64,000 nt of DNA from Candidatus Micrarchaeota archaeon (GTDB lineage: Archaea; Micrarchaeota; Micrarchaeia; Micrarchaeales; CABMGC01), in the NCBI GenBank assembly GCA_021817125.1, contig JAKAWC010000002.1, forward strand, positions 3,589-67,588, read 5' to 3'. The notes beneath the pieces are model-generated. The model was not told the origin of the DNA. It made no database searches and saw only the letters and a program-made list of their open reading frames with translations. The position numbers and the translations under genes were made by a program. Shown one piece after another: positions 22,245 through 44,574 of the stretch (the stretch's first letter is position 1; every line of letters begins with the position of its first letter).

Positions 22245-22315
22245 GGGGGTATCGTCTAGTGGTAGGACGACAGATTGACATTCTGTAAGCAGGAGTTCGA
22301 TTCTCCTTACCCCCA
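22245..22315 (+). tRNA. tRNA-Val (anticodon GAC)
   Basis: Folded by hand. Acceptor GGGGGTA/TACCCCC with discriminator A. Anticodon arm ACAGA-TTGACAT-TCTGT. T-arm AGGAG-TTCGATT-CTCCT. 4-nt variable loop. The ends are accurate to +/-1-2 nt. Confidence 0.85.
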
Positions 22316-22907: not shown

Positions 22908-22988
22908 AGCATCACTAGATGAGACATCTTCTTCTTCCCTTAGCTATACTTTGTGGATGGCTAATGCACGCCACGCGATAGGGGTGAG

Positions 22989-23060
22989 TGGACTCGGCGG
23001 GGATCGCACCCGCGACCTTCCGCTTGCAAAGCGGACGCTCTACTACTGAGCCACGAGCCC
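22989..23060 (-). tRNA. tRNA-Ala (anticodon UGC)
   Basis: The reverse complement reads GGGCTCG...TCCGC-TTTGCAA-GCGGA...GCGGG-TGCGATC-CCCGC-CGAGTCC-A. It includes the G3:U70 pair, the alanine identity element. Confidence 0.9.
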
Positions 23061-23357: not shown

Positions 23358-25979
23358 CTACTTCTTGCTCTTAGGCTTAGCCTTGCCCTTCGCGCTCCCC
23401 TGCGTCTCTTCGTGCACCTTCTCGTCGTTCTCGCTGCCGGCCGCCTCCTCCTTCTCGGGAGTTTCGCCGTCTCGGTGCTCCGTAGGCGCGCCTTCCGCCT
23501 CGTTATCCCGTGCGACCCTAGCGTGGACCTCTCCCTGGCCCCTGATGACGTGCGGTCCCTCTCCGGTGCCCGTCCTTGGGTTCATGATGTTCGGCGTATT
23601 CGCTTCCGGACCTGTGCCCGTGTACTCATAACGCTTGCCCATGGTCTTGTTAAAGTCCGCGTCCGCCTTGGCCCCCAGTTCGATGCCCTTCTGCTTGAGC
23701 ATGCCGCCTCCAATTATACCCACTTTGTCCGCGGCATGACCGACTCCGATGGCTAAGTCCGCGGCAATCGTCTTAAAGACAGGTATGCTCATGCTGCCTG
23801 ACCTCCCTAGCTCCTCCCTCAGGTCCTCGGTTCCCTGGCCGGCGATTGCTTTCGCCGCCGCGGTAGCATATCTTATAGGGCTGCTTATGCCATAAGCGCT
23901 GTCGTGCAGCTTGCCGAAATCCTTGTTGAACTGCTTCTCTATCGCTGCCTGTTCCTTCTGTGCGGTCTTCAGGTCTTTCTCCAGCTGGCTCCTGTATGTC
24001 GCCGCTTCCGCAGTGGTCATATCTCTGACTCCCTTCGTGCCCAGGTCTCCGACCTGCGGCACAGTGCCCTCGCCAAGCTGTCTGAGCGAATCCTTAATCT
24101 GGGTCTCCCTGTCGTAAGCCGACTTCAGTCTCGTAGTCGTATCCTGCGTGAGCAGCTCGAATCTCTTCGCTATCTCGTCAAGATGTTTCTTCCTTTCCTC
24201 GAGAATATTCCTATCGGACTGCTGCCCTGCCTGTACATATGGGCTTACCTTCTCTGCCTGTTCCCTCTCTTTTGGCGCAGCCTTCGCCTCCTTACTGTAA
24301 TCATTCGCAAGCTGTTTGACGTTTTCTGCGCTCTTGGCTCTGGTGCGCTCCTTTCTTAGTTCTTTCGAAGCGCTTGCGACGGACGAAGTGCCATCGACAA
24401 TCTCCTGTGCGCGCTTTGCCGCCTCTCCCTTAAGACCCATGGAGGTGATTACGTCCTTCATATTCTTCCGGCCTGCTATAACATCCTCGGCAAGCGTCTT
24501 CGCCGTGCCAGTCAGTCCAGTGCTGCTTCCTAGTGTCTTTGCGGTACGGATCGCTTCCACATCCCTAAGGTCCTTCACGCTGCCGCCTACCCTGTCCTCA
24601 ACTCTCTTCGTGGCTTCATCCAGCTTCTGCTTAGCCTTGGCTACTGGTTCTAGCATACCTGGTCTCGTAAGGCTGTCTTTTAACTCATCGCTGGGCCTTG
24701 CAACCCGCTTCCCGCCAGGTTTCGAGGACTTGTTCTTATCGCCCGCTGTCACGTTCGTGACGCCCTCTGTCTCTATTCTCTTCCCCTGCCCTTCACGCAC
24801 CGGCCTGGTCGCCGGACCCGCGCTTCCCAGTAGTATATCGAGCCTCTTCCTCTCAGCCTCGAGCCTCAGTCCCGGTGTTCCGCTAATCGGCGACCCGCCT
24901 GCCACCTGTGAGTAGCCGATGACTTTGGTCCTTCTCCCGAAGACAGTCTTTTGTGTAACATCATGCACCGCGAACGTCTTGCCTTGCGCATCTTTAATCT
25001 CACGCGGCGCCCTCCTCTTCGCCTGGTTGGTCTGGTATCCTGCCCTCGCCTCCGCTCTGGCCTGTGCCCCTCCCTGATAACCCTTGAATGCGACCAATCC
25101 GGGGACAGCTAACATAAGTGCTGACCTAGGGCCGTACTTGATTCCGGCTTTGGCCCCCTTGATCGCCAGAGGTATCGGCGCAAAAGCCACCCTCTTGGCT
25201 ACGGTGCTTGCCCTGTTGGCTATCCGCCCGCGAAGCGTTCCCTGATCGAACCTTGTCACCGGAGTTGTCTTGTGCTCGGCCACCCTGTCGATTGCCACTC
25301 CGGCCCTGCTTCCCGCTCTCCCCACGGCCAGGCGTGCATTCCTCATCTTGACCCTCGCGTTCTGGAGGTTGAATGCGACCGCCCTGGTAGACCTTTTGAA
25401 TCCGCCGCCTGCACGGCTTGCCGATGGCAGGTTGCCAACGGGTGACCCCTTCCTCAGCTGCGTCGAGGTGACCTTGCCTACAGGGGCGAGCCCGCCGAAC
25501 TTGCCTCCGGGGGCTGCTCTAGGCGCCGGGATAGGCCTGCCCCTCATGCCGACACCTGTGCCGGCAGATCCGAGTACACCGGCAGGCCTCCCTGCCGCTC
25601 CCCTGATCCTCGACCATAAGACGTTCCTCTCCGCTCCCCTTCCGGCCTTTATGAGGCTCCTTCTCGGTGACAGCGACCTGAGCCCCCCTGACCTTGCCAG
25701 CTTTACGCCAGCGGCTATCTGCCCACCCGTCCTGGACAGCTGGAACGGTCCTGCCGTAGCTATCTTCCCGACGTTCTTCTTTGCGAGCGATCCCCTTCCG
25801 GCAGCGCTGCCGAACCCGGCAAGAGTGGCTATGCCGAACAGGTTGAAAAGGCTGTAGCCCCGCATCGATCCCGCGGCCGCGGCTACAAGGATGAAGATTA
25901 TGATGAGAGGGATGAGCGCGTCTATTGCTCCCAGTGAGAGAAGAATCGCAACGAGTGTAACTCCCACTATCAAAGGCAT
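23358..25979 (-). CDS. 873-aa membrane-anchored, hyper-basic, low-complexity/coiled-coil protein of unknown function
   Basis: The N-terminal ~60 aa form 2-3 TM helices. About 330 aa rich in R/G/A/K follow (e.g. RGAAGRPAGVLGSAGTGVGMRGRPIPAPRAAPGGKFGG). Next come K/E/A-rich coiled-coil-like segments, and the protein ends in a charged tail (...KGKAKPKSKK). No enzymatic motif was recognised. Confidence 0.7.
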   Translation of the reverse strand: MPLIVGVTLVAILLSLGAIDALIPLIIIFILVAAAAGSMRGYSLFNLFGIATLAGFGSAAGRGSLAKKNVGKIATAGPFQLSRTGGQIAAGVKLARSGGLRSLSPRRSLIKAGRGAERNVLWSRIRGAAGRPAGVLGSAGTGVGMRGRPIPAPRAAPGGKFGGLAPVGKVTSTQLRKGSPVGNLPSASRAGGGFKRSTRAVAFNLQNARVKMRNARLAVGRAGSRAGVAIDRVAEHKTTPVTRFDQGTLRGRIANRASTVAKRVAFAPIPLAIKGAKAGIKYGPRSALMLAVPGLVAFKGYQGGAQARAEARAGYQTNQAKRRAPREIKDAQGKTFAVHDVTQKTVFGRRTKVIGYSQVAGGSPISGTPGLRLEAERKRLDILLGSAGPATRPVREGQGKRIETEGVTNVTAGDKNKSSKPGGKRVARPSDELKDSLTRPGMLEPVAKAKQKLDEATKRVEDRVGGSVKDLRDVEAIRTAKTLGSSTGLTGTAKTLAEDVIAGRKNMKDVITSMGLKGEAAKRAQEIVDGTSSVASASKELRKERTRAKSAENVKQLANDYSKEAKAAPKEREQAEKVSPYVQAGQQSDRNILEERKKHLDEIAKRFELLTQDTTTRLKSAYDRETQIKDSLRQLGEGTVPQVGDLGTKGVRDMTTAEAATYRSQLEKDLKTAQKEQAAIEKQFNKDFGKLHDSAYGISSPIRYATAAAKAIAGQGTEDLREELGRSGSMSIPVFKTIAADLAIGVGHAADKVGIIGGGMLKQKGIELGAKADADFNKTMGKRYEYTGTGPEANTPNIMNPRTGTGEGPHVIRGQGEVHARVARDNEAEGAPTEHRDGETPEKEEAAGSENDEKVHEETQGSAKGKAKPKSKK

Positions 25980-26090: not shown

Positions 26091-29000
26091 TTAATGTGTC
26101 CTATGTGCCCTGCGTCTCTTCCTTCCTGCAGTGAACAGCAGCACCGCAGCGACAGCGGCTATCGCCGCAAGCCCTGCCGCGTCTATGTTTCCGTATCCAA
26201 GTTCGAGCAGGCCTATAGGCGTGCTCAGCGTCGACATGTTGGGTGACCAGGTGTAGTTGACCGCTATGAACTTGTCCGACGCGCCGGAATAGAACGGGTC
26301 TGCCGCGTCGACAAGCGGCGCCTGGCTGACGAGTATCGGCTGCGGAGAGGGCGATCCGTAGTATTCCGCGGTTATCAACGCGGTCCCTATGCCGCATGCG
26401 ACTACGTTCGTGGAGAAGACGCCGTCACTGCTCGTCTTGGCTATGCCTATCAGTCCAATCTGCGGCGTGCATATCCCCGTGCCGTTGCTGTACAGCGGCT
26501 CGCAGAACCAGTTCACCGAGCCTCCGGCCGTGGGGAAGCCCTGCGTGGGCACGCTGCCCGAATTGGGTTGGAACGCCTGCGTGTTGCATTCTGCCCAGAG
26601 CCCGTCGACCGCCTTAGTGACGCCGTAGATATTGCAGTCAGCCGTGGTCGGGCTGAAGAGGCTTTTCGGCGGCGCCATGCAGGTGTCCGGTGTCGCGCCC
26701 GAGTTGAAGAGCGAGTTGTATGCGGTGTTATACTCCACAACGGCGTTATTCGGCTGGAGGTTGCCGGCGTATCCCGGATAACCCCGCCAGACCGGGTTGG
26801 ACTTCGTGCAGTTGACCGGTATGGAGCAGCTCTTGTCTGCCGCACATGCACTCGGGCTTCCGCCGAAAGCGCAGAACTGCGCGTTGGTTATGTTCGCCGG
26901 TATCGGCTGCGCGACGAAGTTCATATCGGTGCCATAGTAAAGGTAGACGTCCCCGTTCGGGAGCGGCGAGAACTTGGTTCCGAAGTCAGACTTGTAGCCC
27001 ACTGTCCCGTCTATGTGGACTGTCGTCTGGTTGGCATTGCTCTCCTGGACGGACGGCTGGACAGTGAGCTGGATCGACGTTATGTTCGCGAGATCCGCGT
27101 CGAGCGGTGCGTATATGGTGTTGTTGAACCTGTCGTTGAATACATATACGAGCCTCTGGTAGCCTAGGGTGTTGGACGTACCTGTGAAGCCGTGGTTGGC
27201 GGGGTTTGCAGTGTTGTACTGGTCCCCGTTGATGAACATGTCCAGGGGGCTGTTGTATATCGTCTCCTTATAGAGGTCGAAGAGGCTGACAAATCCCGGA
27301 AACAGCGCCTGCCATGTCTGCTGGTCTGTCGCGCTTATCTGCCCGTCCCCTATCCCGTTGTTGGCTATAGACGAGGGATATGTCTGGACCACCTGGGCGC
27401 TTACCGATGGGTAAAGGAACAGGTTTGGGTTTCCTGACATGCTCATGCCCGAGATGTTGTAGAAGTTCATTGCCCCTTCAGGTATGGGCACGCCTGCCGT
27501 AGCCGACGTGATCGAGTACACGAGCGAGGTCGGCGCACCGGGCTGCGCATACGCAAGAGGCCCGTTCGAGTACGTCTCCACAGTGTTGCCCGTGACCGTG
27601 AGCACGAGCGGATCGCTCGGCGAGATCCAGGCTGTGTCTCCCTGGAGTATGACATTGACCGTGCCCTGCGCCATCTCGTCTATGGCGCGCTGCGACGGCA
27701 GGAATGTTGTGGACAGGTAGAGCGACGTGAATGCGCTCTCGAAGCCGTTGCCGTTCGGCTGCACTATATACGGTCCAGGTATGGCGCTCGGCGCAATGGT
27801 CTGTGGGAGTATGGGATTCGAGTTGATGTTCTCATAGCCGGGGTTCGCCCCCTGCTTGTATGTGTTGACCTGGTACGTGAACAGCTTTGTGGCGTTGATT
27901 ATGTTCTGCAGGTTCGTCGACGCGCCTGCCGTAAGATTGACATATGCCTCCCCGAGCAACCTGTCGTTCTGTAGGTTGAGCGCTATCTGCGGAGGTATTA
28001 TCGTGCCGAGGTCGGAGATGTTTGCGATGTAGTAGTTAGGCGTGCCGGAGTACTGCAGGTACGTGTCCCCTCCCTCTATTATCGAGGTGAGCCAGTTCGA
28101 GGCGCCGTTCACAATCTGGGAGGTGTAGACCGTCGTAGGCCCGACCTGCTGCAGGTTTGGTGCGGAGCAACTTCCAGGCGAGGACCTGAGGTTGCTCGCA
28201 GTCTGCGTTATCCTGTAGGTGTAGGAGTACGGAATCACTGCGTACCCGCTGACCCTGGCGGAGAGTGTCTCCGGTTGGCCAATGAGGCTTGGCACCGACG
28301 GCGTGGTTATGCCTGTGGCGTTGCTGTAGATTATGTTCGCTATGCCGTTGTATCCTCCGTTGGCGTTCTGTACGCATCCCGTGGAGTTGGTCACGTTGAT
28401 GTCCTGGCACGATGCGTTGACCGAGAAGCTACCGCCTCCAGGATAGCTGGATGAGAAGTATCCCGCAGCCGTGAGCAGCTGTGGGCTGCCCAGGTTCTCT
28501 GCATAAGTGAACGGATCGGATACCGTATAAGCTGGTCCCTCCATGTTGTCCACGGTGGAGAGGTAGTTGCAGGTGGACAACGGGTCTGCGCCTGATGCGG
28601 GGTTGCCGTTGCCCGGCAACGCGTAGGCGCCTGCAGAAGTGTAGCACTGGTACTGCGGAAGGCCGCCGAACTGCTTCGTGTAGTTCTCCAGGGCGTACTT
28701 CGTTATCGCGAAAGTGTCCCACAGGTTGGCGTTCTGCTGTATCTGGTAGCTCCATGTGTCGCTGGAGCCCGGATAGTTGATTATGGGCAGCGATGGGACG
28801 TTCGGCATGAGTATGTCTATGGAGCCGTTGAAGCTGACGCCAAGCGAGACCCCGAAGTAGAGCGGCGTGTAGCCCGCTGCTCCAAGTCCGGCTCCGAACC
28901 AGGCGCCGTTGTTGCATGTGCCCTGCGTTGCTCCTGAAGGATTTGTATTGACCCACGGACCGAGAGCCTGTATCGTTGGCCCGATCGGATAGAATGCCCC

Positions 29001-32000
29001 CGTGTACTTGGCTGCTCCGTTTGTGAGGTCCGCCTTGTCGAGGCATGTGGTCGAGCTTCCGGAGCAGAAGTTTATCGATGAGTAATCGCCCCCTGTCCAG
29101 CCGTTGCCGCTGCTGTCGGTGTAGGGTCCGCAGCTCGTGCCGCACCCCCGGAAGTTGCCTATCTCGCCGTAAGGCGGGTTGTTGGCAGAGCAGCTCGGGT
29201 TGAAGTTGGTCAGCCCCCAGCCCCGCGTGGTCTCAAGCTGGTAGATTCCATCTCCGGGCAAGCAGCCGAAGCCAAGGTTTCCTGCGGCGTTGTTGCCGCT
29301 GCATATTATCGTCACGTTCGCAGCCAGGGGCCAGCCGTACGGCGGGTATACCCCGCCGGGTGTCGGCGAATTTGTGCCTATATCATCGTAGCCCGTAGGG
29401 TTTATCTGCAGGTCTGTGCCGTTCGAGGTGAGCGCCCTGAGCTCGAGTGCGCTGAACCAGACTCCCTGCGTATAAGTGGCTTGCCCTCCTGCGCCCCCGC
29501 CCTGGCTGGGGTCCTGTACGTTGAAGTCGCTTGGCGCCCAGTTGTCGAGAACGTAGAGGTAGCCATTCACATCCGTCAGGCCCAGGGGGTGGTGGTAGCC
29601 TGGGGTGTCCTGCCATAATGTCGTCGATATGCCAGAGCCCTGCAGCGCGCTGACTATGTCGAGGCCAAAGTGATAGAGCCCGCTGTTTTGGAGATACGAT
29701 GTGATGTTTACCGGCGGCGCGACCGAGCTGCTGTATCCGGCAATCTGCTGGCGGTAGGTCAGGTCCACGCTGCCGCCAGAAGTGAGGTTCTTGCCGAACA
29801 TGGTGTAAATAAATCCGGTCTGCGCGCTGGACAGGTAGTCCGTCTGGTTGGCCAGGAAGACAAGGGAGCCGTCCGGAGACGACGTTATCTCCGTGGTGAC
29901 AGGCATGTTGAAGCTTGTGCTTGTGGTGTTCGACCAGAGCCACGTGGTGTTCGCTGCTAGCGTAGGGTTGCCGCTTATCGTGTTGGACACCTTCACCACT
30001 CCGGGGAACGTCTCGGTGGTGCAGCTGGACGGGTTCACGCCCTGCACCGCTCCGGTTATGAAGACGTCTCCGCTGTTGTCCGCAGTTATGTTGAGCGGCG
30101 TAAATGCCGGGGAGTTCGGCGACGTCTGACTGTTCCCCTGCTGGTTCGTGACGCTCCCGCCGCATGCCACCTGCATCATGTGGTTCGCGTGGTTGTAGAG
30201 CGTGTTCTCATAGCTCGCCATCACCCCCTGCGCCCCGGAACCGCTGTTCCCCGGGCCGAGGAGGATGGACCTGGCGACGTAGACCTCCTGGTCTTGCAGA
30301 TTTATCAGGTTGTTGAAGTAACTCTGCCAGTTGCCGTTCCACTGCGCCTGGGAGGTGCAGGATGTGCCGCTGCAGATCGTGCCAGGCTGGTAGCCTGAGG
30401 CGTTGTACTGTCCATGGGGGACGACGCGGAGTATGGTTAGGTAGTAGTAGTTGCCGCCGCTCATGTTGAGGACGAAGATGTAGTCGTTTGATATGGCCGC
30501 GACAGATATCGGGCCTGGGATGTTGGGGTTTACCCAGCCAGGCGTGCCTGCGTTGTTGCCCAGTATGGAGCCAGGGTCCTGCGGCCCGTTGTTGTGGCTG
30601 CATCCCCCGTTGCTGTCTGGCAGGCAGTAGAAAGGCGCGCCCTCGAGCGAGCCCAGGTCGGCGCTCTGCAGCGAGTTGTTGACGTTGACGAAGAGCTTGC
30701 TCGGAAGGTCTATCGGGTACGGGTCTATCGACTGCGAAGGTGTATTGTAGTTCCACGGGCCGAAGAGGTCGTAAGAGTTGTTGAGCGATGCACCGTAAGG
30801 CCCTGGCAGCGAGTAGTTGAGCGTGAAGTATGGTAGGATGTTGGCGTCGAACGTGTTGAACTTGTTGCCCTGCCCGTCGACCACTTCGTTGAATGGTATG
30901 TAACTGTTGTCGACTCCGCTAACCATCGTATTTATGGTGTCGGCGAAAGTGTACGAGCAGCTTGAGGTCGGGTCCGTATACGATACTACGGGTATGTACG
31001 CCTGGGAAGGCACTGTCTGCCGCAGGTCCGCGAACTCCGCGCTCCATGACCATATATCGTGTTGCGCTATCGACGGTATGCCGAAGAAGATGTAGCTCTG
31101 GGTGTGGAAGTTGTTGGCTATCTCGCCGTCAACGCTCGGCGTGAAGGAGATCTCGTTGATCGTGAGCGCGCCGATGTTGCTTATCCCAAAGCTGGGCAGC
31201 GAGACCTGGGGGGAGCTCACTCCATTCCATGATACCTCTGTCTGGTAGTGAATCTGGGAGTCGAGGCTAGACACAGACGACATGCACTGGTCCCCTGCAG
31301 CGTAGGTCGGGGTGGCAGCTCCCGGGTATATATCCGACTGGTCTCTCGGATTCATCACAGGCGCATTCGGCGCAGTGAGGAACCAAGGTGCGTTGGCTAT
31401 GTTGTTATTGTTCACCTGCTCTGCGGGAGAATATGCGTAGCCCGGCGTCGAGCCAGTATATGTGAGCTGGCACCCTGCAGGGTTGTAGCTTGTCACCGTG
31501 CCGAGTCCTGTGTCGAAGATGCACACCGTGGTGCCGCCTATGGAGTTGCATGGCAGCGCCTCTGTCTGATAGTTAACGATGAAGTTGGCCGTGGCGCCAG
31601 AGGACCAGCCGCCCGGAAAGTCTGTCGTCAGCGTGCCGCTGGACAGGCAGCTGCCGCCGGTGCAGCTGAATACAGGGGACTCCTGGTAAAGTTCGTTTAT
31701 CGTGTAAGTGTAGTACGGGGCAGGGACCGACTGGAAAAACATTGGGCTATTGTATGCGAACTGGACGTTCTCGTCGTTCGCCACGAGGAATGTTGCCTGA
31801 CCGCTAGCCACCTGAGAGGCGGTCCACGTCTGGTTATGCGAGCCGACCGTGACCGTGAGCATATTTGCGTTTGCAAGGTTTGAATTGAGCGAGTTGGCTC
31901 CGTTATCGACCACATAGCCGAACTGGAGCGGGTAGATGCCCAGCGCAGTCTCTTGCACCTGCCCGTTTGCGCCACCAGACCCGCCAGGGCAGTTGTAGGT

Positions 32001-33104
32001 GTTGCTGCTGCAGCTGCATCCGCCAAGGCCGAGGTTGCATGTGGTGTAGGTGCCGCTTCCGGCGTAGACGCCCCCTCCAGAGGAATGCGCCCAGCCAGGG
32101 TTTGAGCCTATGCTGTTGAGCACCGCCGACGTCGCGGTGATGGATATTACTCCTCCTCCCCCGCCTCCGCCGTCAACGCAGCCGATAGGAGCCTCGGAGC
32201 CGCAAAGGCTCGTGGACCCGTGGTGCCAGAATGTGCCCTCCCCGCCGCTGCCTCCGATTGCAGCGATATATCCGCCAGGGGCGCCGTTGAACACGGCGTT
32301 TCTAGGATTTGGCGTCACCACCGTTATGTTTATACTTCCTCCTCCGCCTCCGCCTCCGGCAGCCGCGCCGTTGCATCCTGTGGTCGCCCCCTGGCCATCG
32401 TTGCCGTTCGCGGTTATCGGCCCGTTGTTGTAAAAGTTAAGCGCAGTGATGGATACCGCCCCTCCTCCAGCCCCGCCCCCGCATGAGAGCGAGAAGCTTG
32501 GACAGACCGTTCCCGAAGAACTCGCATAGCCCGCGCCTCCGCCTCCGGAGTATGCACCGCCGCCCATGGAGCCTGTCGATATGCAGAAGCCTGAACCTAT
32601 ACCAGATCCACCCCCGCCGCATCCGCTGTTTCCGCCCCAGCTGCACGTAAGGTCGCTTCCCGAGAACCCGCCATTGTTATTGTTGCCCGCCTGCCCGCCG
32701 CCTATCTCCACGTTGGGTCCGTTGCCTCCGTTCCCTCCGTTGCCGCTGCCCGCTCCGCCGCTGCCGCTTCCGCCCTCCCAGCCCCCGGTCCCGGTCGCGG
32801 ATATAGTGCCGCCGTTGGTGAACGTGTCAAGCGCGGTCATCGAGTAACAGTTGCTGTCCTTTCCTGCGCATGTGTAGACCGTGTAGCCCGAAGGTATGTT
32901 TATGTCGTCGTAACAGATGCTGCTCGAGAGCGTATACGAAGCGCTGGGCGGGGTCCAGGTGCCCGGCGTGTATGTCACGCCGCTCGGGCACGATACCACA
33001 GGAAATGTCATCGGGTTCTGATGGATGATTGTGGCCGATGCTGATGCGATAGAACACAGACAGAGGACTCCGAGAGCGAGAAGGATAGTTTGTAGCCTCT
33101 GCAT
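26091..33104 (-). CDS. 2,337-aa secreted giant surface protein (adhesin or S-layer-associated) with a Gly/Cys-rich N-terminal module and a C-terminal TM anchor
   Basis: Signal peptide MQRLQTILLALGVLCLCSIASASA. Residues ~100-380 carry poly-Gly runs with the repeat GGGGGG(S/V)I.IT. The long S/T/N/G/Y-rich body has very many N-x-S/T sequons. The C-terminus is AAGLAAIAAVAAVLLFTAGRKRRRAHRTH. A TATA-like tatataaata lies 48-57 nt upstream. Confidence 0.85.
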   Translation of the reverse strand: MQRLQTILLALGVLCLCSIASASATIIHQNPMTFPVVSCPSGVTYTPGTWTPPSASYTLSSSICYDDINIPSGYTVYTCAGKDSNCYSMTALDTFTNGGTISATGTGGWEGGSGSGGAGSGNGGNGGNGPNVEIGGGQAGNNNNGGFSGSDLTCSWGGNSGCGGGGSGIGSGFCISTGSMGGGAYSGGGGAGYASSSGTVCPSFSLSCGGGAGGGAVSITALNFYNNGPITANGNDGQGATTGCNGAAAGGGGGGGSINITVVTPNPRNAVFNGAPGGYIAAIGGSGGEGTFWHHGSTSLCGSEAPIGCVDGGGGGGGVISITATSAVLNSIGSNPGWAHSSGGGVYAGSGTYTTCNLGLGGCSCSSNTYNCPGGSGGANGQVQETALGIYPLQFGYVVDNGANSLNSNLANANMLTVTVGSHNQTWTASQVASGQATFLVANDENVQFAYNSPMFFQSVPAPYYTYTINELYQESPVFSCTGGSCLSSGTLTTDFPGGWSSGATANFIVNYQTEALPCNSIGGTTVCIFDTGLGTVTSYNPAGCQLTYTGSTPGYAYSPAEQVNNNNIANAPWFLTAPNAPVMNPRDQSDIYPGAATPTYAAGDQCMSSVSSLDSQIHYQTEVSWNGVSSPQVSLPSFGISNIGALTINEISFTPSVDGEIANNFHTQSYIFFGIPSIAQHDIWSWSAEFADLRQTVPSQAYIPVVSYTDPTSSCSYTFADTINTMVSGVDNSYIPFNEVVDGQGNKFNTFDANILPYFTLNYSLPGPYGASLNNSYDLFGPWNYNTPSQSIDPYPIDLPSKLFVNVNNSLQSADLGSLEGAPFYCLPDSNGGCSHNNGPQDPGSILGNNAGTPGWVNPNIPGPISVAAISNDYIFVLNMSGGNYYYLTILRVVPHGQYNASGYQPGTICSGTSCTSQAQWNGNWQSYFNNLINLQDQEVYVARSILLGPGNSGSGAQGVMASYENTLYNHANHMMQVACGGSVTNQQGNSQTSPNSPAFTPLNITADNSGDVFITGAVQGVNPSSCTTETFPGVVKVSNTISGNPTLAANTTWLWSNTTSTSFNMPVTTEITSSPDGSLVFLANQTDYLSSAQTGFIYTMFGKNLTSGGSVDLTYRQQIAGYSSSVAPPVNITSYLQNSGLYHFGLDIVSALQGSGISTTLWQDTPGYHHPLGLTDVNGYLYVLDNWAPSDFNVQDPSQGGGAGGQATYTQGVWFSALELRALTSNGTDLQINPTGYDDIGTNSPTPGGVYPPYGWPLAANVTIICSGNNAAGNLGFGCLPGDGIYQLETTRGWGLTNFNPSCSANNPPYGEIGNFRGCGTSCGPYTDSSGNGWTGGDYSSINFCSGSSTTCLDKADLTNGAAKYTGAFYPIGPTIQALGPWVNTNPSGATQGTCNNGAWFGAGLGAAGYTPLYFGVSLGVSFNGSIDILMPNVPSLPIINYPGSSDTWSYQIQQNANLWDTFAITKYALENYTKQFGGLPQYQCYTSAGAYALPGNGNPASGADPLSTCNYLSTVDNMEGPAYTVSDPFTYAENLGSPQLLTAAGYFSSSYPGGGSFSVNASCQDINVTNSTGCVQNANGGYNGIANIIYSNATGITTPSVPSLIGQPETLSARVSGYAVIPYSYTYRITQTASNLRSSPGSCSAPNLQQVGPTTVYTSQIVNGASNWLTSIIEGGDTYLQYSGTPNYYIANISDLGTIIPPQIALNLQNDRLLGEAYVNLTAGASTNLQNIINATKLFTYQVNTYKQGANPGYENINSNPILPQTIAPSAIPGPYIVQPNGNGFESAFTSLYLSTTFLPSQRAIDEMAQGTVNVILQGDTAWISPSDPLVLTVTGNTVETYSNGPLAYAQPGAPTSLVYSITSATAGVPIPEGAMNFYNISGMSMSGNPNLFLYPSVSAQVVQTYPSSIANNGIGDGQISATDQQTWQALFPGFVSLFDLYKETIYNSPLDMFINGDQYNTANPANHGFTGTSNTLGYQRLVYVFNDRFNNTIYAPLDADLANITSIQLTVQPSVQESNANQTTVHIDGTVGYKSDFGTKFSPLPNGDVYLYYGTDMNFVAQPIPANITNAQFCAFGGSPSACAADKSCSIPVNCTKSNPVWRGYPGYAGNLQPNNAVVEYNTAYNSLFNSGATPDTCMAPPKSLFSPTTADCNIYGVTKAVDGLWAECNTQAFQPNSGSVPTQGFPTAGGSVNWFCEPLYSNGTGICTPQIGLIGIAKTSSDGVFSTNVVACGIGTALITAEYYGSPSPQPILVSQAPLVDAADPFYSGASDKFIAVNYTWSPNMSTLSTPIGLLELGYGNIDAAGLAAIAAVAAVLLFTAGRKRRRAHRTH

Positions 33105-33161
33105 GATTCTGCCTCGAGTAACACCCGCAGATAGCTATTATGTTACTTACGTATATAAATA

Positions 33162-33320
33162 TTACGACGGACGCAGCCTGCCCCTCCGCGCCTCTTCCGA
33201 CCTGCGCGCGACTGCCAGGTTGCAGCTGCTGTGCGTGGAGCACCAGGCGTGGCACTCGCCGGCGTCGCTCGCATTGCGGTAGTGCAGCCCGCAGATGCTG
33301 CAGGAGTGCATCGCAGCCAT
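33162..33320 (-). CDS. 52-aa Cys-rich (zinc-binding-like) micro-protein directly upstream of the giant gene
   Basis: Hand translation: MAAMHSCSICGLHYRNASDAGECHAWCSTHSSCNLAVARRSEEARRGRLRPS, with a C-x2-C-x12-C-x3-C-x5-C pattern. It is below the ORF-track cut-off, and no clear promoter was found. Confidence 0.3.
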   Translation of the reverse strand: MAAMHSCSICGLHYRNASDAGECHAWCSTHSSCNLAVARRSEEARRGRLRPS

Positions 33321-33454
33321 GAACATCCTTGGAAGAGAACCTTCTTCTTACTTCCGCCGCATCTCCGCGCGCGTTCGTCTCCCGTCTAATATCCGACGGA
33401 GGGTATGGATAACTTTAAAAAGCTTGTGGTCGAGTGTTAATGTTAGTGATATAA

Positions 33455-33920: not shown

Positions 33921-36278
33921 TTAGTGCGTAGCGTTGTAGTTGATCTGGAATATCTTCGAGTCCCTGTTCGAGTAGACCAGGCGTGCGGTGGCGTTCCTGT
34001 TGTTCCATATGCAGTTGTAATTGTTGCAGAAGAAGATGAACTTCAGCATGTTGCTGTTGTACAAGCCAGGAGTGAAGAGGTACGCCTCGGTTACGTTCAC
34101 CGGAAGCTGCGGGTTCGGCACGCCAGAGTACACTACCAGGAGCATATCTCCGTTGGTCTGGTTGAAAGTGGTCTGCTGCACGACGGAGTAGTTAGAGTTG
34201 TCGGTATCATAGAACGCCACGTACTTGAAAGGGCTTATCCCGTTCTGCGCTATCCCGTAGGCGGATATCTTCTTCGTGCCGTTGACGTTCGTTATCGTGA
34301 GCCTTGCCGCGAGGCCGTTCGGGTTTTGGAACTGGAAGCGCTCTGTCGTCGAGTTGTAGTTGAAACCGACCTGCGGGAACGGTGCGTACGAGTAGTTGAG
34401 CTGCTCCTGGAGCGGCGTCAGGCTCCAATTCGCCTCGATGAGTATGCCCGACGTCTCGAGAAGCCAGTTGTTCCTCACAAGGAGGTACTGCGGGCTTCCA
34501 GTCAGGTTCGAGGTCAGGTAGGCAGGGTCTGGTGACGCGTTGTAGAGCCAGCGCGCGAAGAGCAGCGCCTTCTGCGCGTTCTGCGCGCCGACGCTGTCCA
34601 TCACGCTGGTCCTGTTCGCTACTCCCTCCACGACGCTGCCGTCGGGCCAGAGCGTGAGCACCGTGGCGTTTGCGTGGGTGTTTGCCTGCAGCGTTGCTAG
34701 CGCCACGAAGAGGTATGGGTTTACGTTGTCTGCCTGTACGAGGGTGAATGTGTAGCCATAGTCTATGAACAGGATGTAAGCGAGGAATGCTATCAGTATG
34801 CCGAACGCCACGAACCTGACCGGCACGTTCACGACCGGCAGGCGCGCGTCCTTCAACATGAGTATCACCCAGTATATAGTGTATGCCGACATTATGGCGA
34901 GCGGCACAGCGAGCAGCGAGTTGAACCTTATGGCGTTTATCTGCAGGAACGAAGTCACAACTATATAAGCTATGACGATGAGCATTGTCTCGTCGGCGTC
35001 GAACCTGAAGCGCGCGTTGCCGCCCATGAATCCTGTCCCGCTGTCATAGGTCTTCATGAAGAGGTATATCCCAGACACCATGATTATAAGGAGCCAGAAG
35101 AGGTACTTGAACCCGCTCACATATGTCGAGAGGGCGATAAGGAGGCTCATGGGTGTGGTGAACAGTGTCACCCCGAAGGATGCAAAGAGAAAGCCGAACG
35201 AAGGGGGCTGCAGCTCCTGGATCGTCGACGAGAAACTATTCGTTATTATAAAGCCGTTGGCCACGAAAACGTCGTAGATGAAACCGGGGGCGATGATGTA
35301 GAGTGCGATGCTGGCCACAGCCACCCCCGCCACGAGTACTCCCAGCCTATATGCTGCTGTAGGCATTCTCAGGATAGTGGGTAGCACTTTAGCAGCGTAC
35401 CATCCGACAAGCATGAACACGAGTATGATCCCGAAGTCAAGGCCGGTGAAGACCTGCGGGTACATAAAACCGAGGAGGATGTATGCGTTGACCAGGATGT
35501 ACCAGACCGCGAGCGCGGCCAGCATGTATTTTCCTTCGTCGACAAGGTTCTTGTTGTCGAGGACGAACCCGAATCCGACTATGAATATGAAGGCGAGCGC
35601 GTATACCGCGACAGCGAAAGCGCCTCCTGAGAATGTGAGATCACAGAGGCTCAGGAGGAAGCCCGACGCCACCGCAAGCGCAACCTTCCTGCTCTGGGGC
35701 TTCTCCCTGAAGGCCATAAGTATGATGATGAGTGCGCCGAGAAGGAACGCCGGGGCGAATCCGTCTCCCCTATACACCCCTCCGCTGGTCCTGGCAGCGT
35801 CGCCCATGCTGAGCGCGAGAAGTGCCATGACCAGGAGTCCGAACATGCGGTCCTTGCTAATCCCGCGGGAGAGATAGTATGCGCCTATAACGTCGAGGAT
35901 GCCGAAGAGTATCGGCACAAGACGCATCACATCATAGTAGCTTATTCCAGCGAACCGCAGGAAGAAGTACGGGATCAGCGTGACCCAGTAGAGCCCGAAA
36001 GGCTCGGTCACCAGCGCGTGCTGTGGCCAGCCAGATATGTTGAGTATATGCGGTATGGAGAAGCCCTGATTGACTGCCTGCCTTATGACCGAGAAGTGAT
36101 AGAAGCCGTCGGGCTCGTAGAAGCCGTAGTACTTCAGGATGGGCACCCTGAAGTATATGGTCAGTGCTATGATAACGATAGTGAGAAGGATGAATATCGC
36201 CCCATATGGCAGCCCCTTCTTCACGCCCGAAGTAGTTGCAGCAACTTGCTCGCTCAATGCATCACAATCAGTAAACAT
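33921..36278 (-). CDS. aglB: archaeal oligosaccharyltransferase AglB (STT3 family) with a divergent WWDYG motif
   Basis: A 13-TM-like N-terminal region with YEPDGFYHF in the first loop (DxD-type), TIQE (the TIxE motif of loop EL5), and LWPDGS at aa 543-548 in place of WWDYG, followed by a soluble C-terminal domain. Confidence 0.8.
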   Translation of the reverse strand: MFTDCDALSEQVAATTSGVKKGLPYGAIFILLTIVIIALTIYFRVPILKYYGFYEPDGFYHFSVIRQAVNQGFSIPHILNISGWPQHALVTEPFGLYWVTLIPYFFLRFAGISYYDVMRLVPILFGILDVIGAYYLSRGISKDRMFGLLVMALLALSMGDAARTSGGVYRGDGFAPAFLLGALIIILMAFREKPQSRKVALAVASGFLLSLCDLTFSGGAFAVAVYALAFIFIVGFGFVLDNKNLVDEGKYMLAALAVWYILVNAYILLGFMYPQVFTGLDFGIILVFMLVGWYAAKVLPTILRMPTAAYRLGVLVAGVAVASIALYIIAPGFIYDVFVANGFIITNSFSSTIQELQPPSFGFLFASFGVTLFTTPMSLLIALSTYVSGFKYLFWLLIIMVSGIYLFMKTYDSGTGFMGGNARFRFDADETMLIVIAYIVVTSFLQINAIRFNSLLAVPLAIMSAYTIYWVILMLKDARLPVVNVPVRFVAFGILIAFLAYILFIDYGYTFTLVQADNVNPYLFVALATLQANTHANATVLTLWPDGSVVEGVANRTSVMDSVGAQNAQKALLFARWLYNASPDPAYLTSNLTGSPQYLLVRNNWLLETSGILIEANWSLTPLQEQLNYSYAPFPQVGFNYNSTTERFQFQNPNGLAARLTITNVNGTKKISAYGIAQNGISPFKYVAFYDTDNSNYSVVQQTTFNQTNGDMLLVVYSGVPNPQLPVNVTEAYLFTPGLYNSNMLKFIFFCNNYNCIWNNRNATARLVYSNRDSKIFQINYNATH

Positions 36279-40379: not shown

Positions 40380-42425
40380 ATGGGGGCTCGTTACGACATA
40401 ATTCTCATCTCGCTGCTCGCGTTTGCAGCTGTCTCCGGTGCGGCTTCGGTCAACAGCACTCTTGCCGGCTACAACGTCCCGTCAGCCGTTATCGCCAACC
40501 TGACGCAGGTGAACATAAGCTACGGCTCTGCGCAGTACGCAGCGCTCTACCTGCAAGGCAACCTCTCATTCGTGCTCAACAAATCTAACGGATACGGCGT
40601 GGTCCTCGGCTCCACGAGCATAGCCCGCATAATGCAGAACTACACCGTCTCCCAGAACATGCCCAAGGCCAACTTCACCCATCTCCGCTCAGAGATGAAA
40701 GCATTCCAGGCTTCTGCGGCGTTCAAGCTCACCCAGGCGCTCCAGCTGACAGGGCTCAACAAGTACACATGCACCACGCAGAACAAGTGCTACTCGTGTC
40801 AGTCCGTAGGCTACGTCTGCTACACCCTCTGGTACCAGACCCTCGGCACGAACGACTCGCTCCAGGTCGACATAATAAACTTCGAGAACAACTGGACCCT
40901 ATACAACCAGTCGCTCAACCGCTTCTATGCGTCGGTAAACGGAATAACCGTCGCGAACGTCGCGCAGAACCTCTCCGCGCTCACCGCATCGGCGGAGAAT
41001 GTCAGCCTGTACTCCCACCAGATGTCAATCGTTGACATGTTCACGGTGCCGGGCAATATGACGTCGCTGCTTGGCAACTGCGGCTTCTACGGCGTCTCGA
41101 CAGGCCCGTGGTACTGCCATTCTGTCGGCTACGTCTCGTGGCTCGGCTACAACTTCACCCTAATCAACAACATAAACTCGCAGCTCGCCGCCATAGCCGC
41201 ACTGCCGCTGACCAGCCAGCAGGTGTTGCAGATAGCGGTCAGCGCCAACAATACGGAGGCATCCTACGTAGTGCCAGTCATACAGGCGCACAAGAGGCAG
41301 CAGCTCGGTGTCATAATCAACACCACATTCTTCGGCTACAATGCGATAGTCAACAACTCCAACCAGATACTCGCTCACATTACGAATGCGACGCTGACCG
41401 CCGATCTTAACGCGCTGGTCCGGGTCCACGCCAATGTGACCGCCAACTTCCTGACGGAGAATTTCACCGCAGCCAACCGGAGTGCAGCGAACGCCATGGC
41501 TACGATGCAGGGTGCATACGCCACGCTTAACAGGACGTATTTCTTCATAATAGGCAGGGCGCAGAACAACACCGAGCTCTTGCTGGACGCGCAGCTTAGC
41601 GGCAACGCCCAGTCCGGCGCGCTCGCATCGGTCGCGTTTCAGCAGATGCTCATGAACCAGCAGCTCTCCGGGCAGATAACCAACACCACGTCTGTCGAGA
41701 TGCAGCTCGATGCGCTCAACGCCAACGCCACTGCCCAGTACAGGGCTTCGCAGCAGCTCTCGCTATCCAACTTTGCGCGCTCTGTGGACAAGCCGTTTAT
41801 CAGCATGCTTGGCGCATACAGCGGCCAGCTCTACGCCGCAAACGTCGCACTCGCCCCAGCATATGGCGCCGTCCTCTCGCTGATAATAGGCGTGGTCATA
41901 TTTATCATAATCTATCTGTACTACCTGTCGCTCGGCGCCCAGAAGAGGCTCGCCATGACCAAGACCGTGCGCGCCAATTGGAGGAAGCTCTTCGCCTCCG
42001 TGGCGATCCTGGTAGTCGTATACGCGGCCCTGACATACTCGCTGCTCTACAGCGCGTCCCAGTCCACTCCTGTCAGCGCGTTCCAGGCTGACGTCTCGCA
42101 CTCGGCATACCTTGCGATAATAGAGAACGGCACGCAGACTGTCGGGGGGCAGAACTGCGTCAACACCCTTGTCAATAGGGCGCTCGCGCTGAGCAAGAAA
42201 CCGATAATCGCGCAGATAAGCGGCACCACGTGCACCGTGGGCAATGTGACCAAGACACGTGACTACTGCATGAACTTCTTCGCATACTCCGACATCCCTT
42301 CAGTACTGCTTACGAACAACAACACGCCTAGCATACGGGTGTACTCCCTCTACGGCTCGCAGCTTGCGGAGAGCGGAAACTCGAGTGTACTCGGCTCGTG
42401 CTATGCATCGCTTCTGCTCGGATGA
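40380..42425 (+). CDS. 681-aa membrane glycoprotein, candidate S-layer anchor/stalk
   Basis: Signal peptide (IILISLLAFAAVSGAASV). A ~490-aa N/Q/A/L-rich ectodomain with many sequons and coiled-coil-like stretches. Two TM helices (VLSLIIGVVIFIIIYLYYL, FASVAILVVVYAALTYSLL). A ~120-aa C-terminal domain. A TATA-like tatttaaata lies ~40 nt upstream. Confidence 0.65.
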   Translation: MGARYDIILISLLAFAAVSGAASVNSTLAGYNVPSAVIANLTQVNISYGSAQYAALYLQGNLSFVLNKSNGYGVVLGSTSIARIMQNYTVSQNMPKANFTHLRSEMKAFQASAAFKLTQALQLTGLNKYTCTTQNKCYSCQSVGYVCYTLWYQTLGTNDSLQVDIINFENNWTLYNQSLNRFYASVNGITVANVAQNLSALTASAENVSLYSHQMSIVDMFTVPGNMTSLLGNCGFYGVSTGPWYCHSVGYVSWLGYNFTLINNINSQLAAIAALPLTSQQVLQIAVSANNTEASYVVPVIQAHKRQQLGVIINTTFFGYNAIVNNSNQILAHITNATLTADLNALVRVHANVTANFLTENFTAANRSAANAMATMQGAYATLNRTYFFIIGRAQNNTELLLDAQLSGNAQSGALASVAFQQMLMNQQLSGQITNTTSVEMQLDALNANATAQYRASQQLSLSNFARSVDKPFISMLGAYSGQLYAANVALAPAYGAVLSLIIGVVIFIIIYLYYLSLGAQKRLAMTKTVRANWRKLFASVAILVVVYAALTYSLLYSASQSTPVSAFQADVSHSAYLAIIENGTQTVGGQNCVNTLVNRALALSKKPIIAQISGTTCTVGNVTKTRDYCMNFFAYSDIPSVLLTNNNTPSIRVYSLYGSQLAESGNSSVLGSCYASLLLG

Positions 42426-43026: not shown

Positions 43027-44574
43027 TCAGACCCTTTTATAGACCTGTGCCGTGCCGTTCTGCACGTACAGCCTGTACGAATTGCTTCCCAAATACTCGT
43101 AGAAGTACGGTTGGACCAGGAATGCATTCTCGCTCACGTTCGCGTTGAAGTCAACCACAATGTACTGTGGCGCAAACCTGATGTTGCTTGAGAAGTCCTC
43201 CAGCCACTCCCTCTGCGTCAGGTGCGGCATCATGAACTGCGCCGCAGCGACGCTCGCGTTCGCAGGTATCGCGGCCAGCACCGAGTTCATCTGCGCATCG
43301 AGGACCTGCTGCTGGGGGCCCACCCGGAAGAGCAGGCTCTGGCTGAGGTTCGCTATGTTCGCGTTGCGTATGAGGACCGGGGAGACCACGCACAAACACG
43401 CAGAGGCAATCACGCAGCTGACCACCACGACCGACCCAAGCTGCATCCGGCGTGCTTCCTGAACACGTCTCCTCGTGGTGCCCGCCGCCCTCCCAAGGAG
43501 AGTCAAGGCACCGAGCGTAGCTGCGACGAATGCACCCGGCATGGCAAATGCGAAATACTGCTCGTATGGCAATATGAACGGAGGCTTGAAAGAGATGAAA
43601 GTACCGGCAAGATACGGCAGTACCGTGAGCACGGCAACATCAAGGCTGGCGAAGAGCGCCACCCCGAAGCCGAGGAATATCACCAGCAGGGCGAACGCAG
43701 TGTACGGCGAATAAAAGCCAGTGACATATATCGCGATGTCGTTGGTCACGGACTTGCCGAAGTTGGATAGCGAGAGCGATGTGAGTCTCAGCAGCCCATT
43801 CTGCGAACCAAAAGTGACATAGAGCATCTGTGGCACCGAGGCATAATCTCCCGCAGAGTATGCTGCAGTGAGGTTTGCGGTAATAAGATAATATACCAGC
43901 GTCGCGACCAACGAGGCGACTATTATCACATACGTGAGGTTCCTCCTCTCGCTTCTGGTCTTCCCGCCCTTGTTGTGGAACTGCTCATAGACGAGGAGCG
44001 CAACCCCGAGCATGAGCACTATAGCCACAACGCTCTCCAGGCTGCCCAGAAGAAGCGCCAGCGACGCATAGAACTGTGGCTTCCTCACCTGCATGTAGAA
44101 GTAGAAGGTCAGTATGTAGAAGAGAGGGATGAATGCCTCGGTGTGGAAATCAAAAAGCGTTATGCCGTGGATTCCCGGGCTCAACAAGAACGCGGCACAG
44201 AATGCCAGCGCAAGTCCCTGCCTTCCGGTCAGGCCCCTCACAGCGAAGAATACGGCCAGCCCGGCGAGCGAGACGATGACGTCTTCCGCAAAGAGCAGCG
44301 TAAGTGGGGACTGGAACAACGCATAGAAGGGCACGACAAGAAGCCACATGTCCGGGGAGATGTGGTTTCCGAACACCAGCAGCTGCAAGCCAGCGGCGTA
44401 GCTTGTGTAGTGGAGATAGAAGTAAGTGTTGTAAGTGAATATCGCCAGATCGAAATATGTGTGGAAGGTATTGTACTCGTTGACAGAGTAGAGTCCCCAG
44501 TAGGCTATGCTTGCCAGCGTCATGGCGATCGCCGCCGCTGCAAAGACAGCGTTATAGTCTCTCTTCTGCGCCAT
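43027..44574 (-). CDS. DUF2079-family polytopic membrane protein (GT-C-like, possible glycosyltransferase)
   Basis: FDLAIFTYN...FGNHISPDMWLLVVPFYALFQSPLTLLFAEDVIVSLAGLAVF matches the DUF2079 pattern (fDlgif...HfsPil.l.aPlY.lfPsp.tLL). Many TM helices and a soluble C-terminal domain. Confidence 0.6.
   Translation of the reverse strand: MAQKRDYNAVFAAAAIAMTLASIAYWGLYSVNEYNTFHTYFDLAIFTYNTYFYLHYTSYAAGLQLLVFGNHISPDMWLLVVPFYALFQSPLTLLFAEDVIVSLAGLAVFFAVRGLTGRQGLALAFCAAFLLSPGIHGITLFDFHTEAFIPLFYILTFYFYMQVRKPQFYASLALLLGSLESVVAIVLMLGVALLVYEQFHNKGGKTRSERRNLTYVIIVASLVATLVYYLITANLTAAYSAGDYASVPQMLYVTFGSQNGLLRLTSLSLSNFGKSVTNDIAIYVTGFYSPYTAFALLVIFLGFGVALFASLDVAVLTVLPYLAGTFISFKPPFILPYEQYFAFAMPGAFVAATLGALTLLGRAAGTTRRRVQEARRMQLGSVVVVSCVIASACLCVVSPVLIRNANIANLSQSLLFRVGPQQQVLDAQMNSVLAAIPANASVAAAQFMMPHLTQREWLEDFSSNIRFAPQYIVVDFNANVSENAFLVQPYFYEYLGSNSYRLYVQNGTAQVYKRV

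Follow-up and report, generated by a model that had tools for sequence, protein, structure and literature searches.

Results

The giant gene and its product

We analyzed a 64,000-nucleotide stretch of DNA (hereafter the window) from a Candidatus Micrarchaeota archaeon (assembly GCA_021817125.1, contig JAKAWC010000002.1, positions 3,589 to 67,588). Its longest open reading frame (ORF), singled out in an original prediction from the letters alone as the largest gene of the window, encodes a protein of 2,337 residues (hereafter the giant protein). The features of the locus are listed in Table 1. The identical product, in a version of 2,306 residues that starts at Met32, is present on four contigs of independent assemblies (sources: ENA ERZ27237313, NCBI and Logan SRR13205814). 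Since the ORF is intact on all four contigs, its frame is no accident of assembly, and the ORF is a real gene; the disruption in another assembly that the original prediction had named as grounds for abandoning it was not seen. Public records place the start of the protein at Met32 (loci L001 and L002; window 33011-33104), by which the signal peptide is lost. Upstream of Met32, no TATA-like or Shine-Dalgarno-like signal comparable to those in front of the longer ORF was found. The start of the 2,337-residue form is therefore better supported. Gene calls from Met32 would conceal the giant protein from secretome screens.

Hydropathy analysis showed exactly two hydrophobic segments in the giant protein, residues 1-28 and 2305-2328. 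The former, with MQR, a hydrophobic core and ASASA/T, has the look of a cleavable signal peptide, and the latter is followed by the basic cluster RKRRRAHRTH, both as originally proposed. These features strongly support the assignment of the product as a Sec-exported type-I membrane protein with one C-terminal transmembrane (TM) helix and a positive-inside tail. The predicted mature protein has a mass of about 240 kDa and a pI of 4.2.

Between the two segments, the N-terminal layout was also borne out. The head contains four Cys residues, and its motifs CPSGV and ALDTFTNGG are common to the window protein and its Micrarchaeum homologues. A BLAST search with residues 25-100 matched only the protein itself and one further entry (P0096). 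The module behind the head, described earlier as poly-Gly/Cys, is made of three units, each of which is a poly-Gly run followed by a short beta-strand-like x-I-x-I-T-A, and the same kind of unit occurs in the homologues of Ca. Micrarchaeum A_DKE, of ARMAN-1 and of locus L017. Gly accounts for 32% of residues 101-400. The G7-x-I-x-I-T units may resemble the ALK-type glycine-rich domain (PF12810) and the chlamydial Pmp and beta-helix repeats. In Pfam, no match of the Gly-rich heads to PF12810 or to Pmp and beta-helix repeats was obtained at E<=10, nor was any other family for the heads of the window protein and of the A_DKE and L017 homologues. Internal repeats of the protein were absent at BLAST E<=10, in agreement with the claim that it has no long tandem repeats. 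The gene itself contains no more than two tiny repeats at the DNA level, which both fall in the Gly region.

The giant protein is rich in Gly (12.9%), Ser (10.7%), Thr (9.0%) and Asn (8.9%), and Lys, Arg, Asp and Glu together make up 7.2% of the residues, as against 5.8% in the surface-layer (S-layer) protein encoded nearby. Since the S-layer protein and other exported proteins share this property, the low charge is a trait of the exoproteome of the organism, presumably an adaptation to acid. The number of N-x-S/T sequons is 33 (1.41 per 100 residues), which is 3-4 times that of the cytoplasmic proteins of the window. Shuffling of the protein's own residues, however, gave 37.5 +- 5.4 sequons. 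There is thus no enrichment, and the dense sequons of the ectodomain, noted in the original prediction, are a by-product of composition. In three other exported proteins of the window, sequons are 2.5-3.6 times as numerous as expected from their own composition: a secreted protein at 40380-42425 on the forward strand (29 against 10.8 expected), and exported proteins at 4183-5280 on the reverse strand (18 against 7.0) and at 6102-6872 on the forward strand (9 against 2.5). None of these three matched any family.

Table 1. Features of the giant gene, its product and the surrounding genes (positions in the window; aa, residues; counts refer to the 155 family proteins described in the text).
Feature	Position	Strand	Remarks
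Giant gene, ORF	26091..33104	-	ATG start; 2337 aa; uninterrupted translation; longest ORF of the window
TATA-like box ATTTATATA	33152..33160	-	about 52 nt upstream of the ATG of the giant gene; read from sequence
GAGG, Shine-Dalgarno-like	33112-33115	-	7 nt spacing to the ATG
Signal peptide, aa 1-24	33033..33104	-	MQR / hydrophobic core / ASASA-T; hydropathy; hydrophobic leaders also in full-length homologues
Cys-containing head, aa 25-100	32805..33032	-	Cys 39, 64, 79, 86
Gly/Cys-rich module, aa 101-385	31950..32804	-	12 Cys; two G7 runs
Lineage-specific region, aa 386-529	31518..31949	-	BLAST: sole family match is itself
Block A, aa 530-810	30675..31517	-	in 130/155
Block B, aa 860-1270	29295..30527	-	in 139/155
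Cys-rich lineage-specific insert, aa 1271-1399	28908..29294	-	8 Cys
Block C, aa 1400-1780	27765..28907	-	in 154/155; part of the search profile
Lineage-specific linker, aa 1781-1934	27303..27764	-	C-D gap 155 aa; family median 55
Block D, aa 1935-2308 (1935-2337 with anchor)	26181..27302	-	in 155/155; most conserved; Cys-rich; membrane-proximal
C-terminal TM helix, aa 2309-2327 (AAGLAAIAAVAAVLLFTAG)	26124..26180	-	hydropathy
Cytoplasmic basic tail RKRRRAHRTH	26094..26123	-	positive-inside stop-transfer; stop codon 26091-26093
Partner gene, 873 aa	23358..25979	-	directly downstream of the giant gene; own TATA-like box
Partner membrane module, about 65 aa, N-terminal (LSLGAIDALIPLIIIFILVAAAAGSMRGYSLFNLFG)	25785-25979	-	hydrophobic; conserved
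785-aa multi-pass membrane protein	33921-36278	-	no Pfam, NCBIfam or PDB match
S-layer protein, 1052 aa	36954-40112	+	PF05124 8.9e-15; TIGR01564
DUF2079 membrane protein	43027-44574	-	E 1e-40
Membrane GT2 glycosyltransferase	12325-13995	-	

Relatives and distribution

The giant protein showed no match in Pfam, NCBIfam or PHROGs apart from one sub-threshold match to VPEID-CTERM (see below), and sequence and profile searches of the PDB gave nothing significant. The first database search returned the protein itself and a 2011-residue hypothetical protein of Ca. Micrarchaeum sp. ARMAN-1, which aligns collinearly with the window protein along almost all of its length and has the same layout. Fifteen loci were found in a scan of one genome per species. 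Twelve of them bear the name Micrarchaeota or Micrarchaeaceae, among them the cultured Ca. Micrarchaeum A_DKE (NZ_CP060530.1, about 400,579-406,611), and the remaining three carry the labels Methanothrix, Marsarchaeota and plain 'archaeon'.

A profile of the C-terminal 940 residues was then searched against 1.84 billion representative proteins. It matched 214 of them at E<=1e-3, 209 at E<=1e-10 and 193 at E<=1e-30. Since 193 of the 214 matches lie below E<=1e-30, the family is sharply bounded and has essentially no distant relatives. The matched region is at or near the C-terminus in nearly all of the 150 matches listed. Complete members have about 1,500 to 3,844 residues, a few fused forms (see below) carry up to about 450 residues more, and the shorter entries are probably fragments. 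Word-indexed protein searches were swamped by Gly-rich and hydrophobic words and gave 2, 11 and 7 matches; such a search with the membrane module of the partner missed even known long partners. All the source names seen for the family read 'hypothetical protein'.

The family as found is defined by four collinear blocks (A to D), of which C and D lie C-terminal, in front of a TM helix and a basic tail. Its sequence distribution appears to be confined to Micrarchaeota. No description of it was found in the Micrarchaeota literature that was available. As far as we found, the family, its scaffold, the logic of its variable slots, its occurrence in Micrarchaeota and its coupling to a partner or a J domain are undescribed, while giant surface proteins of DPANN archaea as a kind are known.

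Two observations on individual loci may be added. The entries under foreign names (locus L013, JAVYSI010000013.1, Methanothrix sp.; locus L015 and protein P0011, Marsarchaeota) show an ARMAN-1-type giant protein together with the partner gene, and these labels are probably binning or labelling errors. In one metagenome-assembled genome (binchicken_co3_333), two paralogues of 2607 and 2338 residues are present (L010 and L019), with near-identical C-termini and different N-terminal parts.

A conserved scaffold with variable slots

The stretch of about 1,900 residues behind the Gly/Cys module had been described as rich in Ser, Thr, Asn, Gly, Tyr and Pro and without obvious long tandem repeats. 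It is indeed a long, low-charge ectodomain. It is not featureless, however, since comparison of the family resolved it into the four conserved blocks and lineage-specific inserts. All counts of blocks and anchors were taken over 155 family proteins. Blocks A to D form a conserved, membrane-proximal scaffold of about 1,800 residues. Block D ends in the juxtamembrane motif NYxWxPNxT...IGxxELxYGNI, which was seen across loci, and its Cys residues are conserved as well.

The conservation profile of block B showed four blade-like motifs of the NHL/SBBP type (P.SIA..PNDYIYVLN, D..GDVFI.G, EIAVSP.G..VYLA and HHPLGI.DVNGYLYVLDNW). The Pfam family SBBP was detected in two of 17 relatives (best E 1.1e-4) and not in the window protein. 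Block B also gave weak propeller matches in the PDB by sequence, and a Foldseek search with a low-confidence model returned propellers with TM-scores of 0.1-0.3. These facts suggest that block B is a probable beta-propeller. The AlphaFold2 models, built from 12-row alignments, had a mean predicted local distance difference test (pLDDT) score of 40 for residues 71-1270 and 32 for residues 1271-2337. They are mostly beta-strand and contain no long helix except the TM helix.

Length varies at two positions. The part in front of block A measures 122 residues in the median and reaches 1287 in the longest case; for the gap between blocks A and B, the corresponding figures are 244 and 1085. In the window protein, the N-terminal slot is occupied by 530 residues and the A-B gap is near-minimal at 50 residues. 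By BLAST against the family, the segments 1271-1399 and 1781-1934 are inserts private to the window protein.

In many relatives, these slots hold enzymes. The A-B gap contains SLT_3 and Peptidase_M23 in P0007, SLT_3 and NlpC/P60 in L006, and SLT_3 in P0016. Among the 16 longest members, SLT_3 was found in five, and a GH5 cellulase, GH39 and GxGYxYP in one each. Among 24 members of middle length, SLT_3 was found in six, SLT in three and NlpC/P60 in three, with Phage_lysozyme2 (phage tail lysozyme), CHAP and PKD once each. Muralytic enzymes (SLT_3, NlpC/P60, CHAP) are present in the slots of about one third of the 40 members scanned, and Peptidase_M23 in one further. The window protein has no SLT or SLT_3 domain, and its head was negative even at E<=10. 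Its combination of a Cys-containing head and a Gly-rich module is common to the genus Micrarchaeum (A_DKE, ARMAN-1, L017) and a few others. Between Micrarchaeum species, the first 400 residues are 22-52% identical, as against mostly 60-85% in the core. Since the anchor is C-terminal, it is the most distant region from the cell's own membrane that evolves fastest.

The partner gene and its fusion to the giant protein

The original prediction made no mention of the gene that follows the giant gene, of the forms in which the two are fused, or of the J domain found in some of these fusions. In A_DKE, the partner gene lies at about 406,650-408,011 of NZ_CP060530.1. The membrane module at the N-terminus of the partner protein is conserved in the gene at this position in nine loci. 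The rest of the partner is a basic, Gly/Ala/Lys-rich, non-conserved tail, which looks disordered and is predicted to be cytoplasmic. The partner protein had no match in Pfam, NCBIfam or PHROGs. The idea that its N-terminus is a copy of the giant protein's anchor was dropped, with an alignment score of 25 as against 26 +- 5 for shuffled sequences.

In seven of the 155 representatives, the giant protein and the partner are one protein. The junction is clean: the juxtamembrane motif leads into the TM helix of the partner, which stands in place of the helix and basic tail that the giant protein otherwise has. Read-through of a stop codon does not explain these fusions. On the Rosetta-stone argument, the fusions indicate that the giant protein and its partner function together. 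In three of the seven fused forms, moreover, the tail ends in a DnaJ domain above the Pfam threshold (E values of 2e-12, 5e-10 and 1.6e-13). In these three (P0086, P0150 and P0154, from public metagenomes), a giant surface protein has a DnaJ domain with its HPD motif at its very C-terminus, which is an odd architecture. The partner protein of the window has no J domain.

The three forms resemble membrane-tethered J-domain proteins (E. coli DjlA and the Sec63/Pam18 type) in having a single TM helix and, at the end of the cytoplasmic tail, a DnaJ domain with HPD. DjlA and the Sec63/Pam18-type proteins, in contrast, have no giant ectodomain, and the comparison does not extend to the partner of the window, which is without the domain.

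The C-terminal anchor

The anchor of the giant protein had been called unusual. A TM helix followed by a basic tail, however, is found in 144 of the 155 family proteins listed, and it is an ordinary, classical type-I anchor. The accompanying statement that there is no PGF-CTERM signal was confirmed: no PGF occurs in the last 60 residues, and no NCBIfam PGF-CTERM match was obtained at E<=0.1.

We considered whether the C-terminus (IGxxELxYGNI, TM helix, basic cluster) could be a new tripartite sorting signal, at which a sortase-like enzyme would cut off the helix and join the protein to a lipid or to the envelope. The order of the three parts is that known from PGF-CTERM, PEP-CTERM and LPXTG, the juxtamembrane motif is conserved across the family, and a match to VPEID-CTERM (TIGR04161) covers residues 2307-2333. 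The score of that match is 13.8 bits (E 0.046), however, as against a cutoff of 33. Genuine sorting signals occur on unrelated cargo proteins. A search through about 400 kb of Micrarchaeota DNA found the motif on no low-charge (exported-type) protein outside the family. Since this C-terminal architecture is limited to the giant family, no shared sorting signal is indicated, and that candidate was rejected. No archaeosortase-like gene was found among the 15 window proteins scanned. In the fused forms, furthermore, the motif continues directly into the partner TM helix and a long cytoplasmic tail, which argues that the helix is kept and not removed. A tripartite sorting signal is therefore very improbable.

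Discussion

A candidate host-contact protein

The original prediction had guessed at a role in interaction or adhesion. The guess fits the family, in which the TM end is conserved, the N-terminus evolves fastest and lytic enzymes sit in the slots of relatives; taken as a whole, the earlier interpretation is partly supported. From these sequence features, we give about an even chance to the reading that the giant protein is a host-contact protein that projects past the S-layer. The scaffold would then be a stalk that bears the variable module off the membrane, through the sub-S-layer space of 20-25 nm, to the surface, where the module would engage the envelope of another cell. In A_DKE, the pseudoperiplasm measures 20-25 nm, and remodelling of the surface has been observed at sites of host contact (10.1101/2021.04.28.441871; PMC8975820). 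In many relatives the module is a set of muralytic enzymes, which would cut a cell wall. In the window protein and in those Micrarchaeum species that live on wall-less Thermoplasmatales, the Cys/Gly-rich head may instead be a binding rather than a catalytic tip, at the position where relatives bear the wall-cutting enzymes. Through the partner or the fused tail, the complex would be linked to the cytoplasm, and the J domain of three lineages would recruit Hsp70.

A further step would be to regard the giant protein and its partner as a hitherto unrecognised, Micrarchaeota-wide trans-envelope apparatus, encoded by two genes or by a single fused one. Its stalk would present outer modules suited to the kind of envelope that the host or prey has, with muralytic enzymes against walled cells and a Cys/Gly-rich head against wall-less Thermoplasmatales, and its tail would be directed to the cytoplasm, reaching Hsp70 via the J domain in some lineages. 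We regard this extension as doubtful. If it is true, the apparatus could be a symbiont-side machine for contact and possibly for the import of material.

Several facts weigh against a host-contact protein. No published expression data for the A_DKE homologue were found in the papers and supplement descriptions consulted. The window protein has no enzymatic or adhesin domain recognisable in Pfam, NCBIfam or PHROGs. With mean pLDDT scores of 40 and 32, the stalk geometry, the propeller and the fold of the head are unproven. Muralytic modules make little sense against archaeal hosts that are wall-less or have only an S-layer; in relatives they may serve, for example, in attack on bacteria, and their function may not be transferable to the window protein. 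The restriction to Micrarchaeota rests on the 15 named loci, the 214 profile matches being unnamed. Finally, the S-layer gene at a distance of 3.8 kb and the adjoining gene of a probable AglB fit a purely structural role in the envelope.

The last point leads to the possibility that the giant protein is a TM stalk that anchors the S-layer, in the manner of SlaB of the Sulfolobales. The 1052-residue S-layer protein has a signal peptide and ends without a TM helix. Having no anchor of its own, it would sit on the giant protein. How the S-layer protein of A_DKE is held on the cell was raised as a question by Gfrerer et al., who speculated that a second, TM-anchored stalk protein is needed. The short distance between the two genes, the envelope and glycosylation genes around them and the conservation of the membrane-proximal end would all suit such a stalk. 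The linkage is not kept, however: by tblastn, none of the 16 other loci showed an S-layer homologue near the giant gene, within flanks of up to 10 kb, and in ARMAN-1 the neighbours are pilus loci. The anchor of a lattice should be uniform, whereas this family is hypervariable at its ends, carries inserted enzymes and reaches 3844 residues in length, and one metagenome-assembled genome has two paralogues. SlaB shares with the window protein a signal peptide, a beta-rich ectodomain and a single C-terminal TM anchor, and lies, as here, near an S-layer gene. It is, however, about five times smaller, has a coiled-coil stalk and is invariant in architecture, and the low-confidence models of the giant protein showed no long coiled coil of this kind. 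An S-layer stalk is therefore unlikely.

A glycoprotein of general function, as a protective layer or matrix (glycocalyx, biofilm or acid shield), would require no partner cell at all, and its inserts would be the outcome of neutral domain shuffling. The low-charge composition rich in Ser, Thr and Asn is typical of acidophile exoproteins, glycosylation genes lie nearby, and no binding domain was identified in the window protein. Muralytic enzymes, on the other hand, have been acquired again and again in one slot, which does not look neutral. Unlike in the heavily glycosylated neighbours, the sequons of the giant protein are not above the level set by composition, and a conserved membrane partner and J-domain tails are unexpected for a passive coat. 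We consider such a coat quite unlikely, and the host-contact protein is the best reading.

Comparison with known systems

Among described proteins, fam00969 of Woesearchaeota and Pacearchaeota comprises extracellular proteins of up to about 3,000 residues with murein-type lytic transglycosylase domains, which were proposed to attach to or degrade the cell wall of the partner (Castelle et al. 2021; PMC8204110). Judged by analogy, these giant lytic-transglycosylase proteins are the closest published analogue of the giant family. Both consist of giant proteins of small-genome DPANN archaea, and SLT_3 is present in at least 11 of the 40 members of the giant family scanned. The two families were compared by description; fam00969 was reported to be specific to Woesearchaeota and Pacearchaeota, whereas the giant family occurs in Micrarchaeota. 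The window protein, unlike fam00969, has no SLT domain, and accounts of fam00969 describe neither the C-terminal scaffold nor the type-I anchor nor a partner, be it downstream or fused.

Mancarchaeum Mia14 has four large strain-specific surface proteins with beta-propeller, PKD and CARDB modules, which take up about 2.5% of the genome (PMC5498576). These and the SPEARE proteins resemble the giant family in that they are surface proteins of very great length, from cultivated DPANN symbionts, for which host interaction was proposed. The Mia14 proteins, compared here by description, were characterized by the Pfam families PKD, YVTN and Kelch, none of which is above threshold in the window protein. 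The SPEARE proteins of Nanohaloarchaeota have a serine protease and a restriction endonuclease as their hallmark domains; neither was detected in the window protein with Pfam and NCBIfam.

As to how DPANN archaea recognise and tap their hosts, imaging of Micrarchaeota shows contact sites, filaments and nanotubes, and no symbiont-side molecule has been named. The giant family offers a concrete candidate, which is conserved in the sampled Micrarchaeota, very large, anchored, variable at its distal part and often equipped with envelope-cutting enzymes. It can be tested in the existing co-cultures of A_DKE and ARM-1. If the type of head follows the type of host, hosts of uncultured Micrarchaeota could be predicted from sequence. 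For an archaeal surface protein, it is unexpected that inside and outside are coupled by fusion to a cytoplasmic tail, which in some lineages bears a J domain.

Genomic neighbourhood

The membrane protein of 785 residues encoded next to the giant gene carries YEPDGFYH in its first loop, TIQE, and FIDYG in place of WWDYG. From these motifs it is a probable divergent AglB/STT3 oligosaccharyltransferase. Its C-terminal domain contains 14 sequons, where 5.1 are expected. Together with the DUF2079 and GT2 genes, this AglB-like gene suggests an envelope-glycosylation neighbourhood. The giant protein itself did not match the S-layer models (PF05123/PF05124 and TIGR01564).

In ARMAN-1, loci of the type-IV-pilus/archaellum kind (T2SSE, T2SSF and small predicted proteins) lie on both sides of the giant gene (L003, 1641-7920 and 22087-26036). 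Orthologues of GT2 and TruD of the window are found near the giant gene of L007. An origin of the giant gene from a phage or mobile element was rejected, as the locus showed no PHROG match, no flanking repeats and no cassettes. Just past the partner gene lie tRNA-Val(GAC) (22245-22315, forward strand) and tRNA-Ala(TGC) (22988-23060, reverse strand), near which no repeats or integration signatures were seen. On the other side, just upstream of the giant gene, a public gene call marks a Cys-rich ORF of 54 residues (33162-33326, reverse strand), which matched no family. It is zinc-ribbon-like (CxxC ... CxxxC), and its stop codon (33162-33164) adjoins the TATA-like box of the giant gene (33152-33160).

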